Below the pieces are notes generated by a model that saw only the letters and a list, made by a program, of their open reading frames with translations, had not been told where the DNA came from and ran no database searches. Position numbers and translations under genes: made by a program. DNA of 64,000 bases, taken from the NCBI GenBank assembly GCA_016206155.1, contig JACQSC010000004.1:7450-71449 (forward strand), in the 5' to 3' direction. How positions within the stretch are numbered: the stretch's first letter is position 1; every line of letters begins with the position of its first letter. This document shows positions 8,276 through 57,487 of this stretch, piece by piece. This DNA comes from Candidatus Uhrbacteria bacterium (GTDB taxonomy: Bacteria; Patescibacteriota; Patescibacteriia; JACQRZ01).

Positions 8276-8295
8276 GGCTCTCTAATACTATGGAA

Positions 8296-8322
8296 TTAGC
8301 AGTCCTATAATTTGAGTGCTAA
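8296..8322. promoter_or_regulatory. CIRCE-like HrcA operator (TTAGCAGTC-N9-GAGTGCTAA) upstream of clpB
   Basis: One mismatch to the CIRCE consensus TTAGCACTC-N9-GAGTGCTAA, about 20 nt upstream of the clpB start. Confidence 0.6.
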
Positions 8323-8462
8323 TAGTATAGCCTTGGCGGCTATGATGTCAAGTGCTTGCATATAGTATATCATATATCGTGTCCATTGAGAAGAAGGGTA
8401 CAACGACTTACGCATTCGGCGCATTTCTTCGTCGTGGGGATGGTTGAGTATTTGGTGATACA

Positions 8463-9242
8463 TTGGTAGACTGGAGCAATATGAGTGTTGAAATTATAGG
8501 GGTACGAATTGACCGTCTGCGGAGCGCGGATATAAGGGAACGATGTGCGGAGTGGCTTTTACAGAAAGAGCGGCGCCGCCTCCATCAGGTGGTTACGGTG
8601 AATCCCGAATTTATCATGGAGGCACAGAGGAATAGCGAATTTCGCAAGGCGCTCAATGCCGCCGCACTTTCCCTTGCTGACGGGATAGGCCTTTTTTTTG
8701 CCTCGTGGATATTGTACGGATGGCGTAGTCGCCTTTTTCGCGTTACTGGGGTTGATTTTACCTGGATGCTTGCCGAGCTGTGCGCGCAGAACGGATCTCG
8801 GGTCTATCTTCTTGGCGCGGGCGATGGGTTAGCGCATGCTGCGGCTGCAGTGCTTCAAAGGCGCTATCCGACCCTTGTGATCGCCGGTGCGGAAATGGGC
8901 ATTCCAAAAGTTGTTGCAAAAACAAGCGATTTGCTTGATAAAGAGCTCTGTGAGAAAATTTGCTCTGCGCGTCCCGACGTTCTCTTGGTTGCCTTTGGGG
9001 CGCCGCGGCAGGATCTTTGGATCGCGCACAACGCTTCGCGCATGGACGGGATAGCGATCGCCGTTGGCGTTGGCGGAACATTTGATTACCTTGCGGGTGC
9101 GGTTCCGTATGCGCCCAAGTGGGTAAGAAGTATTGGATTCGAATGGACGTATCGTCTTATGACCCAGCCCTACCGTTGGCGGCGCATCATTACGGCGGTC
9201 ATTCGTTTCCCCATTGCCGTTCTTCGCTCAAAGTTTTTTTGA
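8463..9242 (+). CDS. WecB/TagA/CpsF family glycosyltransferase
   Basis: Family-typical length and motifs (GVRID..., GxGxG region, LVAFGAPRQD). Confidence 0.8.
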   Translation: MVDWSNMSVEIIGVRIDRLRSADIRERCAEWLLQKERRRLHQVVTVNPEFIMEAQRNSEFRKALNAAALSLADGIGLFFASWILYGWRSRLFRVTGVDFTWMLAELCAQNGSRVYLLGAGDGLAHAAAAVLQRRYPTLVIAGAEMGIPKVVAKTSDLLDKELCEKICSARPDVLLVAFGAPRQDLWIAHNASRMDGIAIAVGVGGTFDYLAGAVPYAPKWVRSIGFEWTYRLMTQPYRWRRIITAVIRFPIAVLRSKFF

Positions 9243-9275: not shown

Positions 9276-9515
9276 ATGAAGGAAATTTCACCAAATATTG
9301 TTATTGATCCACTGGTACGATTCGGAAAGCCGATCATCAAAGGAACAAGAATAACCGTTGAAGAAGCGCTTGGTTTTCTTCGGAGCGGGATGACGTACGA
9401 CGAAATATATCAAGAGTATGAACTGACCCCAGAACAACTGCGGTGTGTCATTGATTATGCAGCTGCGTTTGTTGCTGGCGAAAACGTTCAGCAATTCAGA
9501 ACCATGGAAGCATGA
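9276..9515 (+). CDS. DUF433 domain protein (putative antitoxin)
   Basis: GKPIIKGTRITVEEALGFLRSGMTYDEI matches the DUF433 core. Confidence 0.7.
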   Translation: MKEISPNIVIDPLVRFGKPIIKGTRITVEEALGFLRSGMTYDEIYQEYELTPEQLRCVIDYAAAFVAGENVQQFRTMEA

Positions 9516-9871
9516 TGTTTTTTATTGACAGCAACCTTCCTTACTCTGCAAAACAGGCGTTCCTTCAATACGGAAAAGCATTACACACACGAGATGTCGG
9601 CTTGAAAGATGCCCCAGATATAGTTGTGCACGCATATGCTGTTTCACAAAATGCGATTTTAGTAACGCAAGATTTAGAGTTTAGTAACCTAACCCTTTTT
9701 TCTTATCCAAGGGGAACAGGACTCATTATTTTGCGTATTCCTTCATTTTATCGGAAGCAGTACATTGAAAAGTTTATAGATACATTTCTTTCCGAACATG
9801 GCCGTAATGATTTTACGAACGCTGTTACTGTTGTGCAGCCGGGGTGGATTCGAAGACGGCCGATTGAATAA
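9512..9871 (+). CDS. DUF5615 (PIN-like) domain protein, partner of DUF433
   Basis: FFIDSNLP...ILVTQDLEF pattern; 4-nt overlap with the upstream gene. Confidence 0.65.
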   Translation: MMFFIDSNLPYSAKQAFLQYGKALHTRDVGLKDAPDIVVHAYAVSQNAILVTQDLEFSNLTLFSYPRGTGLIILRIPSFYRKQYIEKFIDTFLSEHGRNDFTNAVTVVQPGWIRRRPIE

Positions 9872-9876
9872 TTTTT

Positions 9877-10434
9877 ATGTACCTCTTCATTCATGCAGCA
9901 GAACGAGAGTATGCGTATCTCCTGCTCGTTGGCAAAAGCATGCCCCGCACCACGATGCGGGGTAAGGAATTGTTAGAATTCCTTACTTTTGGTGACCTCG
10001 TTGTTTATACAAAGTACCTTGTGTATCGGGGAAAGAAATCCCCCGATGTGTTGCGCGGCATCGATGATCTACTGAATCAATTTGGTCTCGCAGCAAAAAG
10101 TCTGAAGGGCATCTGCGTGCTTTCCGGTCCGGGGCAATTTTCGTTTTTGCGAACATCGGTGGTAACTGCCAACACTTTTGGGTGGGCGTTGAACATTCCG
10201 GTTGTTGGTATTTGCGACAAGAAAATGGTGTCTGGTTCCAAGAAAATGGTGTCAGGTACAATTTCCGAAGAAATTGAACCAGACACCATTTTCTCAGACA
10301 CCATTTTCTCGCATAACACCATTTTGTTCATCACGCGCGGTCTCAAAAAGCTCTCGCGCACAAAACGTTTTCGTCCGGTTGTCCCGGAGTACGGCAGAGA
10401 GCCCAACATCACGACGCCGAAGAAAAGAATATAA
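9877..10434 (+). CDS. tsaB: TsaB (YeaZ)-like N-terminal domain protein carrying an in-frame palindromic repeat insertion
   Basis: LSGPGQFSFLRTSVVTANTFGWALNIPVVGI matches the TsaB GPGSFTGLRIG...A..LP..G motif; the C-terminal part is atypical. Confidence 0.5.
   Translation: MYLFIHAAEREYAYLLLVGKSMPRTTMRGKELLEFLTFGDLVVYTKYLVYRGKKSPDVLRGIDDLLNQFGLAAKSLKGICVLSGPGQFSFLRTSVVTANTFGWALNIPVVGICDKKMVSGSKKMVSGTISEEIEPDTIFSDTIFSHNTILFITRGLKKLSRTKRFRPVVPEYGREPNITTPKKRI
10221..10325. repeat. 105-bp nested palindromic element: 2x GAAAATGGTGTC(A/T)GG, central palindrome, then 2.5x inverted copies
   Basis: Direct reading; the same 15-nt termini recur at 14769..14822. Confidence 0.85.
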
Positions 10435-10545: not shown

Positions 10546-10821
10546 ATGCAACTCGCGCGTATAAGCTCGCAGAAACAAATAACCATTCCCTCAAAGCTTT
10601 TTCGAAAACTTAAGCTTGATATCGGAGACCATATTGGCATTTCTGAAGAGAATGGCACGCTCGTTTTGCGCCCCTATAAACTCATTCCAAAGGATCAGCT
10701 CTGGTACTGGACAGAGGAGTGGCAAAAGATGGAACGAGAGGCGGACGAGGACATCGCCGCAGGCCGTGTGTCGGGACCCTTTACAACGGTTGAGGAGTTT
10801 ATGAAGGATCTCAAAGCGTAA
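10546..10821 (+). CDS. AbrB/MazE/SpoVT-family antitoxin
   Basis: QKQITIPSKLFRKLKLDIGDHI swapped-hairpin motif; immediately upstream of a RelE-like ORF. Confidence 0.7.
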   Translation: MQLARISSQKQITIPSKLFRKLKLDIGDHIGISEENGTLVLRPYKLIPKDQLWYWTEEWQKMEREADEDIAAGRVSGPFTTVEEFMKDLKA

Positions 10822-12332: not shown

Positions 12333-12368
12333 TGAACTCAAAAAATAGCGAAAGGGTAAAATCAACGG

Positions 12369-12408
12369 CTAAACCGGTTTAGCCGTTGATTTTTTGTTAT
12401 AACAGCAA
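12369..12408. terminator. rho-independent terminator after rarA (18-bp perfect stem followed by a T-run)
   Basis: aaaatcaacggctaaacc / ggtttagccgttgatttt followed by ttgtt. Confidence 0.75.
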
Positions 12409-14768: not shown

Positions 14769-14822
14769 GGTGAAAATGGTGTCAGGAATAGTTTCTGCAA
14801 AAACTATTCCTGACACCATTTT
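14769..14822. repeat. 54-bp perfect palindrome with GTGAAAATGGTGTCAGG termini (second copy of the 10221 element family); likely intergenic hairpin or terminator
   Basis: 25-bp arms, 4-nt loop, directly after the ftsL stop. Confidence 0.85.
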
Positions 14823-14913
14823 CACTAGGAGAGAAGTGTAATCCGCATGGGGCGCGACACGTCTCGCGAGAACAACCAGCGACTTTTCTGCGCGCTGGTT
14901 GTTTTTGATTTGA

Positions 14914-20603: not shown

Positions 20604-20885
20604 TTATTCCCTATCAATAACTCTGTCCCTTCTCATACCATCAGCAATATACCTCTTCATAAGCGCTTGGTATGGCATATCGAGCACGTTCGCCCGCTCC
20701 TTTACGCCCGAAAGAATGTATTCGGGCAGTCTCAGTGAGATAGATCGCGTTGAGTGCCGAAGATTCGGGAATGATACGGGAATAAAATCGTTTTTCTCAA
20801 AATATTCAGAGAGATCGAGGTTAGAGAAAAACTCAAATTCTTTCTTCTTATTCTTCAGTTTTGGAACCGTAAATTTTTTCTTCAT
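20604..20885 (-). CDS. brnA: BrnA-type antitoxin (CopG/RHH-like)
   Basis: SISLRLPEYILSGVKERANVLDMPYQALMKRYI matches the BrnA_antitoxin pattern; overlaps brnT. Confidence 0.75.
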   Translation of the reverse strand: MKKKFTVPKLKNKKKEFEFFSNLDLSEYFEKNDFIPVSFPNLRHSTRSISLRLPEYILSGVKERANVLDMPYQALMKRYIADGMRRDRVIDRE

Positions 20886-21168
20886 AGAGATATCGTTCCT
20901 TTCGATTCAAGTCCCGCGCGGAAATAACTCGAATCCGCTTATTTCTTATTGTGAATGCCACGTAGAGCGCGCGCGTCCTGGCAGTGCTGCCGATTAAAAT
21001 AAATCGCTCCTCCTTATTCGTGGAATGGCTCCGATTGTTGAAGATACGCTTCTGTGGGTCTGAAAAGATTTGCTCGCACTCAACAACGGTTACCCGATGC
21101 TTTTCCTGATTCTTTTGTATATTCCACTCGTCCCACTCAAATTCTTGATAGATGCTAAAATCAATCAT
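20848..21168 (-). CDS. brnT: BrnT-type ribonuclease toxin (DUF497)
   Basis: FEWDEWNIQKNQEKHRV...FSDP DUF497 signature. Confidence 0.8.
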   Translation of the reverse strand: MIDFSIYQEFEWDEWNIQKNQEKHRVTVVECEQIFSDPQKRIFNNRSHSTNKEERFILIGSTARTRALYVAFTIRNKRIRVISARDLNRKERYLYEEKIYGSKTEE

Positions 21169-24061: not shown

Positions 24062-24535
24062 TCACTTCTTTCGGATGATAAAAAAGAGGTCGATATAATC
24101 GCGCGCGCGCGCTTTGAGGACAATGGTATGAACCTTATCAACCGCAATGTCATAGATGCTCTCTATTTCAAGATTTCCAAACAAAACACCCTTCTCAATT
24201 CTTTGAAAGGGATAGTAGTTAAAGTCAACTTTTAACACTTCCCCGTCGTTGAAATGTAAAAAAAATGAATGGAGACCAAGAAAACGCTTTGTTTCAATCG
24301 AGGCGATTGAAAGCTTGGAGGCAGTCCTGCCAAAAAACTCTGAAACGCGTAATGGATTCACCTCACTCTTTTCGGTAAAGAGATTGAGGTCTTCCGAGTC
24401 GCGATGGTGGAGATAAAATTCGGAAAGCGCCGTACCACCTGCGAGATAATACCGCGCGGTAAAATACGGTTCATTGGCAATGTGTTCGAGAACTTCTTTC
24501 TGATGTGGCGTTAGGATCGATGGTGGTTTGGCCAT
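24062..24535 (-). CDS. AbiEii/DUF1814-family nucleotidyltransferase toxin, N-terminal domain only (truncated)
   Basis: YLAGGTALSEFYLHHRDSEDLNLF matches the GGTAL...R.S.DlDl nucleotidyltransferase motif; 157 aa against about 300 expected. Confidence 0.55.
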   Translation of the reverse strand: MAKPPSILTPHQKEVLEHIANEPYFTARYYLAGGTALSEFYLHHRDSEDLNLFTEKSEVNPLRVSEFFGRTASKLSIASIETKRFLGLHSFFLHFNDGEVLKVDFNYYPFQRIEKGVLFGNLEIESIYDIAVDKVHTIVLKARARDYIDLFFIIRKK

Positions 24536-27623: not shown

Positions 27624-27656
27624 AAAAAAACGGCTTTGTGGCCGTTTCTTTAATTT
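27624..27656. terminator. putative terminator after the vanW-like gene
   Basis: aaaaacggc-tttgtg-gccgttt stem followed by a T-rich run. Confidence 0.5.
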
Positions 27657-28075
27657 CAGACAGAAACCTGCAGACAAGAAAATGTACTATTCGCATATTC
27701 GAGCCAAAGGCCCAAATGACGGATACCACATCCCCATGCTTGTCGTGTCTGCAGAGTTCTGTCTGAAACTGTCTGTAAAGAACGCACATGTAACGTGTAG
27801 CCGACAGTCTACCACAGCCACGGATCTTGTCAAGAGTGGTAGGTGTCCCATTTTAGTGTTCACGTCAATTTTCCTTATGGTTAAAGAAAAATGCCTCTTT
27901 CTATTCATCAGTTCAATAAGCAAGTGCACCACTTAGGGGTTCGATGTTTCCGCGGTACACTCCGTGGATATGGCATACACACACCATTCCCAAGACGAGC
28001 GCGAGAACGCTCAATCGCGTCAGCGCTTCCGGAACCCATCGCTCCGTATAACGCACCGAAGGAAAAACCAAAAAT

Positions 28076-31883: not shown

Positions 31884-32536
31884 ATCATTTTTAAGCCGAT
31901 TGCGATGGCATTTACAGATCGTTGCCCCTTTTGCCGCGAGTAATCGGTATAGGTAATTGTAACAGGAACTTCAACGTATCGCAATTTCAAACGGCGGATT
32001 TCATCAATCAATTCTGATGCGTAGGCAAATCGATCTTCCGTGAGTACGATTCGCTCCGTAGCGACGCGAGAAAACGCCCGCATGCCATTATGCGCATCGG
32101 TCAGGCGGATACCGCTCATCCACCAGGTAAAAAATGTTCCAAGCTTGAGGAGTACTTTGCGCGTATTTGAAATATTGGTAATTGAATCTTGAAGAAAGCG
32201 GGATCCGAGCACCACATCGGCCTCTCCGCGCTCAATCGGCGCAATGAGCGCGGGTATATCTTTCGCGTGATGTTGTCCGTCAGCGTCAAAGTGAACAATG
32301 ACATCACCGCCGTGCGCGAGCGCATACTCGGTGCCAGTTCGTATAGCGGCGCCCTTGCCGCGGTTAATAATGTGCCGAAGAACGACCGCGCCATGAGCGC
32401 GTGCGATCTCACCGGTATGATCACGCGAACAATCGTCTACAACGACGATAGTGGAGGTTACCGTTTTTACATCATTAATCACAGCGCCAATTGTCTGCTC
32501 CTCATTATATGCTGCAATAAATACCCAGATATTCAT
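31862..32536 (-). CDS. family 2 glycosyltransferase (DPM1-like polyprenol-phosphate glycosyltransferase)
   Basis: VFIAAYNEE...VVVDDCSRD...FDADGQH motifs. Confidence 0.85.
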   Translation of the reverse strand: MNIWVFIAAYNEEQTIGAVINDVKTVTSTIVVVDDCSRDHTGEIARAHGAVVLRHIINRGKGAAIRTGTEYALAHGGDVIVHFDADGQHHAKDIPALIAPIERGEADVVLGSRFLQDSITNISNTRKVLLKLGTFFTWWMSGIRLTDAHNGMRAFSRVATERIVLTEDRFAYASELIDEIRRLKLRYVEVPVTITYTDYSRQKGQRSVNAIAIGLKMIWKKLLT

Positions 32537-32618
32537 CCCGTTAGAAGTAGATCGCTTTTATGGCTTAACCCCCTCCCTCCCCTCTTATCCCGCCGAAGTG
32601 ATCGCAACTTCTAACGGG
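32537..32618. promoter_or_regulatory. 12-bp inverted repeat (CCCGTTAGAAGT / ACTTCTAACGGG) enclosing a 58-nt C-rich loop, abutting the GT2 start codon
   Basis: Direct reading; in the minus-strand mRNA the loop is purine-rich (GGAGG-like). Confidence 0.5.
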
Positions 32619-32656
32619 ATTCATAGTACCACAAGCATATCACCTATTTCCAAAAC

Positions 32657-37439: not shown

Positions 37440-37444
37440 ATATG

Positions 37445-37579
37445 CCCCGCACTTAAGAACGATTGTTGCCCATTATTCATCCGTACGTTTATGATGCACA
37501 CCACCATTATTATTGATCAAACGATTTTCTCAGTGTACATACGACGAAACACGGGGATGAATCGTTCTTAAGTGCGGGG
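37445..37579. promoter_or_regulatory. perfect 20-bp inverted repeat (CCCCGCACTTAAGAACGATT / AATCGTTCTTAAGTGCGGGG) enclosing 95 nt, ending 1 nt before the rpiB ATG
   Basis: Direct reading; 20/20 complementarity. Confidence 0.8.
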
Positions 37580-38033
37580 TATGCTGTATATTGCCTCTGA
37601 TCATGCAGGATTTGCATTAAAGGAATACCTCAAACGATTTTTGAAAAAACACTCAATTGCCGTTGAGGATATTGGCGCACATAGATACGATAAGGCGGAT
37701 GATTTTCCTCGCTATGCGTTTTCCCTTTCAAAAAAAGTCGCCTCGGATTCCTCACATCGCGGAATTCTTCTTTGTGGAAGCGGGCAAGGCATGTGCATTG
37801 CGGCAAACAAAGTAAGGGGCATACGCGCAGCATCTGTGTGGAACAAAAAAAGCGCTATTGCTTCGCGACACGACGATGACACAAACATTCTTTGCCTTTC
37901 CGGCCGCATGCTCACGAGAAAAGAGACTGAAGAAATTCTTTCATCGTGGCTCTTTACCGGATTCTCCGGTTTGGCACGCTATAAGCGCCGGCTAAACCAA
38001 ATTGCCGCCTACGAAAAAAACTCCCGCGCATAA
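37572..38033 (+). CDS. rpiB: ribose-5-phosphate isomerase B
   Basis: MLYIASDHAGF...LLCGSGQGMCIAANK RpiB/LacAB motifs; the likely start is ATG 37581. Confidence 0.9.
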   Translation: MRGMLYIASDHAGFALKEYLKRFLKKHSIAVEDIGAHRYDKADDFPRYAFSLSKKVASDSSHRGILLCGSGQGMCIAANKVRGIRAASVWNKKSAIASRHDDDTNILCLSGRMLTRKETEEILSSWLFTGFSGLARYKRRLNQIAAYEKNSRA

Positions 38034-43783: not shown

Positions 43784-44026
43784 ATGATTCAAAAAATCGA
43801 CCGATGGGGCAATAGCTTAGGTATTCGCCTGCCAAAGCAGCTTGCTGATCAGCTCTTCCTTAATGAAGGAAGTACTGTTGTTGTTACCCTGGAAAAAAAC
43901 GCCCTTATGCTGCGCCCACAAAAGAGAAGCACTCAGACATTAAAACAGCTTCTTGAACACATCACTCCAAACAATCTTCATAAGACCGTGGACTGGGGGG
44001 AGCCGCAGGGAAAGGAGGTATGGTAG
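43784..44026 (+). CDS. mazE: MazE/PemI-like antitoxin (AbrB-type)
   Basis: MIQKIDRWGNSLGIRLPKQL swapped-hairpin motif. Confidence 0.75.
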   Translation: MIQKIDRWGNSLGIRLPKQLADQLFLNEGSTVVVTLEKNALMLRPQKRSTQTLKQLLEHITPNNLHKTVDWGEPQGKEVW

Positions 44027-44361
44027 AGACAACATATACTCCAAGCCGCGGCGACGTTGTTTGGATTAATTTCAATCCAACAAAAGGACGTGAGCAGGGC
44101 GGTTCACGTCCAGCACTCGTTGTTTCTCCTCAATCGTATAACGAACGGGTTGGCTTAATGCTTGCGTGTCCCATAACATCAAAGATAAAAGGATACCCCT
44201 TTGAAGTTGTCATTAGCATCCATGACATCGAGGGCGTGGTACTGGTGGATCACATACGAAGCATTGACTGGGTCTGTCGAAGCGTTAATCTTGTAGGGCG
44301 GTGTGATGAAGAAACACTTGAAGAGGTGAGGCATAAATTAACCGTCCTGATCAATGAATAA
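44020..44361 (+). CDS. mazF: MazF/PemK family endoribonuclease toxin
   Basis: RGDVVWINFNPTKGREQGGSRPALVVS signature. Confidence 0.85.
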   Translation: MVETTYTPSRGDVVWINFNPTKGREQGGSRPALVVSPQSYNERVGLMLACPITSKIKGYPFEVVISIHDIEGVVLVDHIRSIDWVCRSVNLVGRCDEETLEEVRHKLTVLINE

Positions 44362-52034: not shown

Positions 52035-52045
52035 ACCAATACCAA

Positions 52046-52165
52046 AAAGAATGAAGAATCAAGAATTAAGAATTAAGAATTAAGAATTAAGAATTAAGAA
52101 TTAAGAATTAAGAGGACCCATGATATGCCTTGCTTCGTAATTCTTACTTCTTAATTCTTCATGAT
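52046..52165. repeat. (AAGAATT)x7 tandem repeat followed by an inverted partial copy (hairpin-forming), between ftsH and pilB
   Basis: Direct reading. Confidence 0.9.
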
Positions 52166-52198
52166 TGCAATGAATACAAACCATGAGAACAGAGCTTG

Positions 52199-54059: not shown

Positions 54060-55289
54060 TCAAATTTCCTGGTCGTTTGCCGCCGTTGGTTGTTCGGGAG
54101 CCGGCTCAGCAGTTTCCGTGGGAGTTTTTTCTTCCACTGATTCCTGCGTGTCCGCCGTGGCGGGATTACTGATTCCTGATTCCTCTTTAAACGCTTTGAG
54201 GCTCAATCCAAGACGATGTTCCTCCGGCTCAATGGACACGATACGAAATTCGACCATGTCGCCCTGTGACGCAATGGTTGTGGGATCAACATTCGTTTTC
54301 GTTGAAAGTTCTGACACGTGCGCAAGCCCGTGAATTTCCGGATCCAGCTCGACAAACAAACCGAATGGATTAACTTTTAATACCTTGCCTTTTACGAGCT
54401 GACCGACAGCATAGCGATCCTTCACGTTCTTCCAGGGATCGGGAATAAGATTTTTCATCGAAAGAAATATCTTTGACCCCTCTATTTTAATAATTTGTGC
54501 CTTGATCTTCTGTCCCGAGCGCAGAAACTCTTTTGGATCATCGATGCGTTGCCACGCAATCTCGGAAATATGGACAAGCCCTTCAAGGCCTTGACCGAAC
54601 TCAACAAAGGCGCCGAAATCTGTGATAACAGTTACAACCCCTTCAATATTATCGCTCACCTTGTAGCTAGAGATAACATCTTTCTGGCGCACTTCCCATG
54701 CCGCCTTTTCCGAGACGATGAGCTTCTCTTCTTGCTCATCTGCGTCGATAATTTTTACTTCAAAACTTTCGCCCGTATAAGACTTCAATTTTTCGAGAAT
54801 CTTATTTTTGTCACCACCCTGAATACGCGGATAATGTTCGGGACAGAGTTGAGAAACCGGCATAAAACCGCTTACATTTCCGCACACGACCATGAGGCCA
54901 CCCTTGTTTGCGTCGACGGACTTCACAGTGACAATCTCACCCGATTGGCACAGTTGCCGCAGATGATCCCAGGCCTTTTTATGCCCGGCGCTTCGAAATG
55001 AAAGCTCAAAAAGCCCTCGCTCGTTCTCAAGCTCCAGAACCGTTGCGCTGACTTCATCGCCGAGTTTGAGATTGGAATATTCACCGGATTCATCGACCAG
55101 CTCCATTCCCCGAACAACGCCGGTCGCGACACCGTTGATATCAATCTGCACATCTCCTTTGGAAACTGATAATACCGTTCCGGTAATAATATCGCCGACT
55201 TTCGGAAGCGCGGCGCTGTACTGATCAAGAAGCTCTCTGAACTCTTTTTTACTCTGTTCGTCAGCAAGCTGTTGTGTTGTCGTAGTCAT
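54060..55289 (-). CDS. rpsA: 30S ribosomal protein S1 (four S1 domains)
   Basis: Repeated S1 OB-fold motifs; acidic C-terminus. Confidence 0.9.
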   Translation of the reverse strand: MTTTTQQLADEQSKKEFRELLDQYSAALPKVGDIITGTVLSVSKGDVQIDINGVATGVVRGMELVDESGEYSNLKLGDEVSATVLELENERGLFELSFRSAGHKKAWDHLRQLCQSGEIVTVKSVDANKGGLMVVCGNVSGFMPVSQLCPEHYPRIQGGDKNKILEKLKSYTGESFEVKIIDADEQEEKLIVSEKAAWEVRQKDVISSYKVSDNIEGVVTVITDFGAFVEFGQGLEGLVHISEIAWQRIDDPKEFLRSGQKIKAQIIKIEGSKIFLSMKNLIPDPWKNVKDRYAVGQLVKGKVLKVNPFGLFVELDPEIHGLAHVSELSTKTNVDPTTIASQGDMVEFRIVSIEPEEHRLGLSLKAFKEESGISNPATADTQESVEEKTPTETAEPAPEQPTAANDQEI

Positions 55290-55317
55290 ATCTTATGAAT
55301 TAATTTATGAATAATGA

Positions 55318-55497
55318 TATTGACCTTCGCCTATTGCGTTAACATGAAAAATGTATGATTTTGAGACAGATCCGCTGCTCTGGAACCGCAAAAAACCACA
55401 GTCGTACTATCAGTACGATGAGGATTTTTTGTGGCGAAGAGCAAGGAGCTGGTCAAAATCATAGGCTTTTCGTTAAGGTAATAGGCGAAGGTCAATA
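55318..55497. promoter_or_regulatory. 180-bp element bounded by perfect 18-bp inverted repeats (TATTGACCTTCGCCTATT / AATAGGCGAAGGTCAATA), filling the hppA-rpsA intergenic region (rpsA leader)
   Basis: Direct reading; internal hairpin cgtact-atc-agtacg. Confidence 0.8.
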
Positions 55498-55498
55498 G

Positions 55499-57487
55499 TT
55501 AGCGTACCACGGTAAGCGCTATCAAGAGCGCTACAATGTTAAGAATTTTAATCATAGGATTGATCGCCGGTCCAGCCGTATCCTTGTATGGATCGCCGAC
55601 CGTATCACCGGTCACCGCCGCTTGATGCGCGAGTGATCCTTTTCCGCCAAAGTTTCCTTCTTCAATATATTTTTTTGCATTATCCCAAGCGCCGCCACCA
55701 GATGTCATCGATACGGCAACAAAAATTCCCGTCACGATAGAACCGACAAGAACACCGCCCAGCGCCTCAAACCCAAGGAGCGCCCATATCACCAATGGTG
55801 TTGCGACAGGAATAAGCGCTGGAACGATCATCTTCTGAATTGCGGCGCGCGTCACAATATCAACCGTTCGCCCGTAATCTGGCTTTGCTGCTCCCTCCAT
55901 AATGCCTTTAATTTCTCTAAATTGGCGTCGTACCTCCTCAACAACCTTCCCCGCTGTTGCGCCCACTGCTTCCATTGAAAGCGCACCAAAGTAATAGGGG
56001 AGAAGCCCGCCGATAAAAAGGCCGATGAGAACTTTTGGTTGGTCTATGAGAAATTGAGTTTTTCCGCCAAGCGCGTGCGTGTAGTCGGCAAACAGAACGA
56101 GTGCGGCAAGTGCGGCGGAACCGATCGCATATCCTTTTGTCACTGCTTTTGTGGTGTTGCCAACGGCATCAAGCGGATCGGTAACGTCGCGCACCTCTTT
56201 GGGCAATCCCGCCATCTCGGCAATACCTCCTGCGTTATCGGTAATCGGACCGTATGAATCGATAGCAACAATCATTCCGGCCATCGAGAGCATAGCCATT
56301 GCCGCAACCGCAATACCGTAGAGGCCGCCAAGAGAGAACGCGGCGAGGATACCCGCGCAAATCACGATCACGGGCCATGCTGTTGACTTCATTGAGATTG
56401 CCAGTCCGGTAATAATGTTGGTGGCGTGTCCGGTTTGCGATGCGACAGCGATAGCGCGAACAGGAGAATGCTTTGTCGATGTATAGTATTCGGTAATGGC
56501 AACAAACAATCCCGTCACGGCAATGCCAACGAGCGCGGCAAAGTATACATTGATGGCAGAGACCGACTCAAGCCCTCCCATCATTTTCATCGTAACGGGA
56601 TAGAGAACCAACGCGGAAAGCGCGCCAGAAACGATCAGCCCCTTGTATAACGCCCCCATGATATTGTTTCGCGATCCAAGCCTGATAAAAAAAGCTCCGA
56701 TAATTGAGGTAACGATAGAAAGCGCTCCGATAACCAACGGATACAGCACGGCGGCATCGCGACCGGCGAACGTGTAATACCCCAAAACCATTGTCGCCAC
56801 AGCCGTCACGGCGTATGTTTCAAAAAGATCGGCAGCCATTCCTGCGCAATCGCCAACATTATCGCCAACATTATCGGCAATCACAGCCGGATTGCGCGGA
56901 TCGTCTTCAGGAATTCCCGCTTCCACCTTTCCTACCAGGTCGGCTCCAACATCGGCCGCCTTGGTAAAAATACCGCCGCCAAGCCGCGCAAACACCGAGA
57001 TAAGGCTTCCGCCAAAACCAAGACCGATCAGAGCCTTAATGTCGTGCGTTAGTGCATAGAATCCCGCGACCCCCAACAATCCAAGTCCGACGACAAGCAA
57101 GCCGGTTACCAGCCCCCCTTTTACGGCCATCTCAAGGGCTGGCGCGAATCCGCGTTTTGCCGCCTCTGCGGTGCGGACATTCGCGCGTACCGATACGTTC
57201 ATACCAATATATCCTGCCGCACCCGAGAACGCCGCGCCAATGAGAAAGGCGGCTGCCGTCTTGATGCCAAGAAATAAGGCGATAAGTATTGCAACAATAA
57301 CTGCAACAATGACAATTGTTCGATATTGGCGATTTAAATATGCGGAAGCTCCCGCCTGTATTGCCTGCGCGATAGATTTCATGGTTTCATCACCGGATGG
57401 TTGACGGACAATCCAACGGATCAAAAACGCGCCATAGATAATCGCGGCAATGCTTACAATGATTGAAAAAAGAAGTTCTGGAGACAT
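55499..57487 (-). CDS. hppA: membrane-bound proton/sodium-translocating pyrophosphatase
   Basis: GDNVGDCAG and other H+-PPase signature motifs, multi-TM. Confidence 0.95.

Follow-up and report, generated by a model that had tools for sequence, protein, structure and literature searches.

A lineage-specific 180-bp foldback insertion, probably MITE-like, between hppA and an rpsA-like gene in Candidatus Uhrbacteria

The spacer between hppA and the rpsA-like gene of one Candidatus Uhrbacteria lineage carries a 180-bp foldback element, and on balance we favour reading it as a lineage-specific insertion of ~178–180 bp, probably a copy or relic of a non-autonomous, MITE-like transposon with a terminator-like apex. 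The element is an insertion, its perfect termini enclose diverged interior arms, it has no coding capacity and it matches no known RNA family. Under the reading we favour, a MITE-like copy would have inserted one nucleotide past the stop codon of hppA, upstream of a short conserved rpsA leader, its target being an otherwise tightly packed nusA-hppA-rpsA-ftsH-pilB cluster in this one lineage. The most fitting description is an orphan MITE-like foldback insertion, an unplaced case of a known type of element. Confirmed mobility would make it a record of MITE-like elements in ultra-small CPR genomes, generally regarded as poor in mobile DNA, and a clean natural case of an insertion that sets a terminator-like hairpin, and possibly a hybrid promoter, before an essential ribosomal gene. 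Should mobility not be confirmed, it would be an ordinary orphan intergenic palindrome. All positions below refer to the window, which is the whole 64-kb stretch of DNA that was analysed.

Genomic context of the element

The gene order at the locus is nusA-hppA-rpsA-ftsH-pilB (T2SSE), with the whole set on the minus strand. As hppA and rpsA share this strand, the spacer between them separates co-directional genes. The identity of hppA is solid (NCBIfam NF001951, 1063 bits against a cutoff of 859). The product referred to here as rpsA has four S1 domains, and its best matches are all S1, yet they fall below the equivalog cutoffs. Its N-terminus, MTTTTQQ, aligns with the start of the protein in relatives, and an identical S1 protein is also present in Logan assemblies of the groundwater series. 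The spacer measures 209 nt (55290-55498), and the element takes up all of it except a single nucleotide next to the hppA stop and 28 nt ahead of the rpsA ATG (Table 1). The earlier note had the element filling the entire rpsA leader region; in fact, these 28 nt, which hold a conserved motif, remain in front of the start codon.

Elsewhere in the window, gene orientation changes at ~35.4 kb (divergent) and ~50.2 kb (convergent). The 59 window ORFs of at least 90 aa include several toxin–antitoxin modules, namely MazE (10546-10821, with DUF5615 at 9512-9871 upstream of it), CopG/BrnT (20604-21168), AbiEii (24062-24535) and PemK (44020-44361).

Table 1. Coordinates of the foldback element, its parts and the flanking genes in the window
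Feature	Position	Strand	Remarks
Foldback (palindromic) insertion, 180 bp	55318-55497		whole length forms one imperfect hairpin of ~74–75 base pairs
rpsA-proximal TIR, TATTGACCTTCGCCTATT	55318-55335	+	18/18; starts with TA
hppA-proximal TIR, exact reverse complement of TATTGACCTTCGCCTATT	55480-55497	-	ends 1 nt from the hppA stop
Apex: A6 (55390-95), stem-loop (55396-55423, loop ATC at 55409-11), T6 (55425-30)	55386-55434		terminator-like on both strands
Promoter-like site, TTAACG-17-TATCAT	55314-55342	-	points to rpsA; consensus scan 9/12
rpsA leader motif, TCATTATTCATAAATTAATTCATAAGAT (tandem ATTCATAA)	55290-55317	-	outside the element; conserved in 9/9 relatives
S1-domain protein gene, rpsA-like, 409 aa	54060-55289	-	downstream gene
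hppA (membrane pyrophosphatase)	55499-57487	-	upstream gene; stop codon 55499-55501

The element is one long imperfect palindrome with perfect termini

The perfect 18-bp inverted repeats described in the earlier note are present at both ends and are exact reverse complements of each other. Their pairing extends to 26 nt at 92% (55318-43 with 55472-97). Since two further inverted repeats are nested inside the element (55346-64 with 55453-71, and 55386-408 with 55412-34), the full 180 bp amounts to one long imperfect palindrome. The interior hairpin CGTACT-ATC-AGTACG, which had likewise been pointed out together with A/T-rich tracts, sits at 55403-55417 and is flanked by A6 and T6. For 64 kb of sequence, the chance that a perfect inverted repeat of 18 bp turns up somewhere within 400 nt is estimated at ~4e-4. 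Folding of the 211-nt region gave −85 kcal/mol on the minus strand (z −11.1) and −97.9 kcal/mol on the plus strand (z −14.6), and on neither strand did any shuffle fold as well.

The two arms agree at 18/18 positions at the termini versus 54/74 in the interior (73%, with indels), and at the interior-arm rate a perfect run of 18 bases has a probability of ~0.003. Perfect termini over a diverged interior are the pattern that would be expected for TIRs bound by a transposase. At 41.7%, the GC content of the element is below that of the window (48.3%) and matches that of intergenic DNA (41.2%).

The longest ORFs in the element (54, 47 and 37 aa) are not credible, and the 54-aa and 37-aa ORFs, the latter padded to 43 residues, shared no words with any of 5.8 billion predicted proteins, Logan included. 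Rfam covariance models gave zero matches over 54800-56000 at E ≤ 10, and at the gathering threshold the whole window yielded only three tRNAs. Two candidate identities were tried and rejected. 6S RNA was ruled out, as there was no Rfam match at E ≤ 10 and no large central bubble in the folds. An integron attC site was rejected by eye, as CGTTAAC and GTTAAGG each miss the core consensus (RYYYAAC ... GTTRRRY), and the window holds no integrase.

A structure this stable, with a terminator-like hairpin and U6 on both strands, would also suit an independent sRNA gene acquired by the lineage and transcribed from either strand, in which the apex terminator would end an sRNA of ~90–110 nt. MITE-derived sRNAs are known, e.g. 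the Coxiella QMITEs (PMC10969869), and provide a precedent. However, no Rfam family was found at E ≤ 10, neither arm has a convincing promoter upstream, the searches returned no homologues in which covariation could be seen, and the strands differ little in G–U pairs (4 versus 3), giving no strand asymmetry that would signal a selected RNA. We consider an sRNA gene improbable.

Empty sites in relatives identify the element as an insertion

Nine Uhrbacteria loci with the nusA-hppA-rpsA-ftsH-pilB order (L014, L015, L018, L021 and L033-L037) were compared with the window. The S1 proteins of these relatives are 73–88% identical to the window S1 over aligned columns. Their hppA-rpsA spacers are 29–40 nt long, except for the 87 nt of L015, against 209 nt in the window. 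None of the nine syntenic relatives, the sister lineage included, has the 180-bp element. In the neighbour-joining S1 tree, the window groups with L036 as its sister, within a set of empty-site genomes. The simplest history is therefore one lineage-specific gain, and such a gain on the window branch excludes a conserved, dedicated S1 leader. Across the compared loci, these alignments indicate that the element is a DNA insertion particular to one Uhrbacteria lineage.

Removing the element while keeping one TA yields CTATCATTATTCATAAATTAATTCATAAGAT, which aligns almost base for base with the L036 sequence CTATTGATTATTCATAAGTTAATTCATAAGAT, and also with L033 and L037. A TA target-site duplication (TSD) would account for this reconstructed site, but a border after TATTGA would do so equally well, as the hppA-side arm opens with six bases (TATTGA, minus strand) that are also the empty-site sequence in L036 and L037. 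With TA a palindrome in its own right and TATTGA already standing at the empty sites, both the exact border and the TSD are ambiguous.

The long spacer of L015 (3414-3500) has an insertion of its own, ~45 nt long, with two tandem GC-rich hairpins (TCCGGCaaaGCCGGA and TCCGGCtccGCCGGA); it lies inside the rpsA leader motif of that genome, between its two halves. Taken with the window element, it indicates that the hppA-rpsA spacer has been struck independently more than once.

A palindrome of this kind could also be a fold-back chimera introduced by assembly. Logan contigs from five runs all end inside the element, and the hppA-side arm is known from the window assembly only, in line with an artefact. 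The arms, however, are imperfect (73% in the interior, with indels), unlike those of fold-back artefacts, the five independent Logan assemblies agree exactly over the 111–114 nt from the rpsA-side arm through the apex to the bases just past it, and both flanks are collinear with relatives. The imperfect arms and the identical rpsA-side sequence in five assemblies argue that the element is not a fold-back assembly artefact, which we regard as extremely improbable. The Logan contigs in question (L009-L013, with the identical S1 gene) stop at window positions 55366-55431, four of the five at the T6 tract (55428-55431). Possible causes of these breaks are a drop in coverage at the hairpin or homopolymer, heterogeneity in tract length, a repeat or variant on the hppA-side arm, or an empty allele that exists alongside. 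An exact look-up of the window hppA protein in other assemblies returned no record.

A short motif outside the element is probably the conserved rpsA leader

Operators of the E. coli rpsA type are AU-rich leaders without a Shine–Dalgarno sequence. Directly 5′ of the S1 ATG, the window and all nine relatives carry the bipartite motif TTATTCATAA-N3-4-TTAATTCATAA(G), at which no Shine–Dalgarno sequence is visible. Two of the four occurrences of ATTCATAA in the 64-kb window fall in this leader. The 28 nt between the hairpin and the ATG are unstructured, with a fold of −2.6 kcal/mol (z +0.5). The 28-nt AU-rich tandem AUUCAUAA motif is probably the genuine translational leader or operator of rpsA in this clade.

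The earlier note had proposed that the 180 bp might themselves be a structured leader through which S1 regulates its own synthesis. A dedicated 5′ leader to which S1 binds to control its own translation would agree with the position of the element, which, like the E. coli rpsA operator, lies upstream of an S1-family gene, and which would fall within the 5′ UTR if rpsA transcription starts upstream. Yet the element is missing at all nine orthologous loci, the sister lineage among them, so that the comparison of structure across related genomes suggested in that note, when run on the nine syntenic loci, found the hairpin in none. What is conserved in front of the ATG is the short tandem motif, outside the element, and the hairpin excludes the start-codon region, itself unstructured. 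The window counterpart of the E. coli operator would be the tandem ATTCATAA motif at 55290-55317 and not the 180-bp hairpin, and a role of the element as a dedicated S1 leader is very hard to maintain. This corrects the annotation of the locus: the structured 180 bp are not a conserved rpsA regulatory leader, and the conserved leader is more likely the 28-nt motif.

Search for further copies and a parent transposon

The search for the 18-mer that the earlier note had called for was run on the window and on the GTDB, JGI and IMG/VR collections, and turned up no second two-arm copy. With up to 3 mismatches, the 18-mer TIR does not occur elsewhere in the 64-kb window, and none of 100 shuffles gave 2 matches to it. 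Neither blastn-short nor nhmmer found a second copy in the window or in any of the fetched loci. The exact 18-mer occurs at 8 loci in GTDB species representatives, all as a single arm, where ~17 would be expected by chance (estimated from the size of the collection). In JGI metagenomes it gave 10 single-arm chance matches and in IMG/VR 1 single-arm match, with unrelated flanks in all three collections. Several of the GTDB matches fall within coding sequence for IGEGQY. Paired matches in Psychromonas and one Woesearchaeota MAG were rejected as the same coding sequence (…IGEGQY…) shared by descent.

A parent element was not found either. Distant blastn against plasmids and phages returned nothing related to the element, and no two-arm match at the spacing of an IS was found in GTDB representatives or JGI metagenomes that would point to an IS with the same TIR. 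The 59 window ORFs of 90 aa or more include no match to a family of transposases or integrases, and a literature search on MITEs or inverted repeats in CPR/Patescibacteria found nothing relevant.

Two of the single-arm matches have features of their own. In a related Uhrbacteria that co-occurs in the sample series, and whose assembly also supplied the rpsA locus L018, the exact 18-mer lies at a gene junction (L008, 785-802; JACQWH010000013.1, GCA_016209345.1). It falls in the last codons of a membrane-protein ORF and adjoins a hairpin with a 14-bp stem at 745-781; no second arm was found there within 6 mismatches. With a rough chance estimate of ~1%, this is possibly a solo TIR relic. Separately, two unrelated GC-rich metagenome contigs (L029, 2342-2359, and L031, 1223-1240) have in common the 18-mer and ~60 nt downstream of it (…CAAAGTAACAsCCCCACAATGACATTCGTGCG…), while their upstream sequences differ. 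The shared stretch looks like the edge of a different repeated element or of an RNA gene, and beyond the 18-mer it is unrelated to the window element.

The apex resembles a bidirectional terminator and one end a promoter

A consensus scan flagged the apex as terminator-like in both orientations. Its stem has 11 bp with one mismatch and one bulge, and U6 follows directly on each strand. Folded alone, the 55-nt apex reaches −20.8 kcal/mol on the minus strand (z −5.2) and −22.5 kcal/mol on the plus strand (z −6.3). In sequence terms, an intrinsic terminator is a G+C-containing stem-loop with a U tract right behind it, downstream of a gene. The apex has this form ~80 nt past the end of hppA and, at the level of consensus prediction, resembles an intrinsic terminator in both directions. 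The window has canonical A-tract/hairpin/T-tract terminators at other sites too, e.g. at 12358-12393, so the organism appears to use this signal.

The promoter-like site in Table 1 has its −35 box inside the element, whereas its −10 box spans the end of the element (TA) and the flank (TCAT). The promoter-consensus scan found 3 sites versus 1.3 expected in shuffles.

These consensus matches suggest how the element might act. A polymerase arriving from hppA on the minus strand would reach the apex hairpin and U6, where hppA transcription may be attenuated or brought to an end by intrinsic termination. Any RNA that runs on past this point would pair into a duplex of ~75 bp, which could stabilise the 3′ end and block exonucleases or, alternatively, be a substrate for RNase III, effects known from Correia and ERIC elements. 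Expression of rpsA may be kept up by read-through, or by a hybrid promoter made of the −35 box TTAACG in the element and the −10 box TATCAT at the junction. The terminator, the duplex and the hybrid promoter are thus all predicted steps, for which there is precedent in MITEs that act through RNA hairpins, promoters at their ends, RNase III cleavage and terminator-like structure (PMC10969869, PMC2649163, PMC3049150).

A MITE-like origin and its relation to known elements

The size of 180 bp, the TIRs, the TA ends, the below-average GC content and the lack of an ORF homologue fit a MITE. By the marks that define MITEs, the element is below ~500 bp, has no transposase or coding capacity, carries TIRs, and shows filled versus empty orthologous sites; as to a TSD, TA stands at both ends, but it is part of the palindrome. 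The alternative that the earlier note had set beside its leader, a MITE between hppA and rpsA, therefore gains from the nine empty sites and the TIR-like termini, while a second copy and an unambiguous TSD are missing.

Correia repeat-enclosed elements (CREE) of Neisseria insert at TA with TA duplication. Like the window element, a CREE is a palindrome (~100–160 bp) with TIRs, and the window element shares with it TA at both ends, a promoter-like site across one end and a duplex long enough for RNase III. CREE can create a promoter at either or both ends, and RNase III can bind them, with cleavage or protection as the outcome (PMC2649163), the cleavage being placed at the TIRs (PMC10969869). 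The two differ in that there is no sequence relationship, in that CREE number tens to hundreds of copies per genome versus the one known here, and in that CREE have an IHF site, whereas an A6-hairpin-T6 terminator apex has not been described for them.

The SPRITE is a small interspersed repeat near gene 3′ ends, whose predicted RNA forms a long duplex followed by a U-rich tract and is terminator-like; it has no known matching IS TIR and no defined TSD (PMC3049150). The window element resembles it in its long, terminator-like RNA duplex and in that no matching IS TIR was found. In contrast to the SPRITE, whose TIRs are only AAAA/TTTT and which is present in ~30 copies per genome with enrichment between convergent genes, the window element has 18-bp TIRs, is single-copy and lies between co-directional genes upstream of an essential gene.

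The ERIC, RUP and RPE MITEs are imperfect full-length palindromes of 100–200 bp, intergenic and co-transcribed with adjacent genes, and show presence/absence polymorphism among related genomes (PMC10969869). The window element is similar in size, in being a full-length palindrome, in its intergenic site and in its presence or absence among relatives. These families, however, are defined by many dispersed copies, and RUP by its similarity to the TIRs of IS630-Spn1.

A bolder extension of the MITE-like reading, which we put forward tentatively and think unlikely as a whole, is that the element would be the first recognised member of a Patescibacteria family of MITE-like 'portable terminators', bringing a bidirectional terminator and a −35 box. 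Its arrival would have divided the conserved nusA-hppA-rpsA-ftsH operon and supplied the essential S1 gene with a new hybrid promoter. On a wider view, the genome would be one in which unrelated palindromes have repeatedly grown in operon spacers, two of them in this operon and several at other places in the window, through an uncharacterised process that generates or inserts hairpins in a reduced CPR genome.

Other palindromes in the operon and the window

The element is single-copy in every collection searched, which is what one would see if a non-mobile hairpin had arisen in situ, by inverted duplication or template-switching, or if a terminator had been imported by recombination, and had then been kept as an extended hppA terminator. 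Since TATTGA stands at this site in L036 and L037 even without the element, it could have served as the template for one end of the palindrome. A second, unrelated, lineage-specific palindromic expansion lies in the same operon: the ftsH-pilB spacer (52035-52198) measures 164 nt versus 9–41 nt in six relatives, and consists of approximately nine tandem AATTCTT heptamers and an inverted partial copy, which form a hairpin of ~34 bp. Several more long inverted repeats, each of them unique, occur in the window, and the L015 spacer has its own small hairpin insertion; together, the palindromes of the operon, the window and L015 suggest that spacers are generally prone to grow hairpins. What speaks against an origin in situ is that the arms match flanking or ancestral sequence over 6 nt at most, which leaves ~170 nt without a local template, and that perfect termini with a 73% interior are the TIR pattern, whereas a simple inverted duplication would decay uniformly. 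We consider such an origin a credible but rather unlikely alternative to a MITE-like insertion.

Unique intergenic elements of 100–220 bp, with inverted-repeat ends of 19–40 nt and non-palindromic interiors, are found at 37442-37582, 27654-27768, 32530-32625 and 8294-8510; one element of this kind has a near-perfect stem of 24 bp and lies between a SLOG-cluster4 gene and rpiB. The palindromic 15-mer GAAAATGGTGTCAGG is present at 10220-10309 and 14770-14825, with six copies in inverted pairs. Its hairpins are very stable (region folds of −56 and −80 kcal/mol), and it is a REP-like dispersed repeat.
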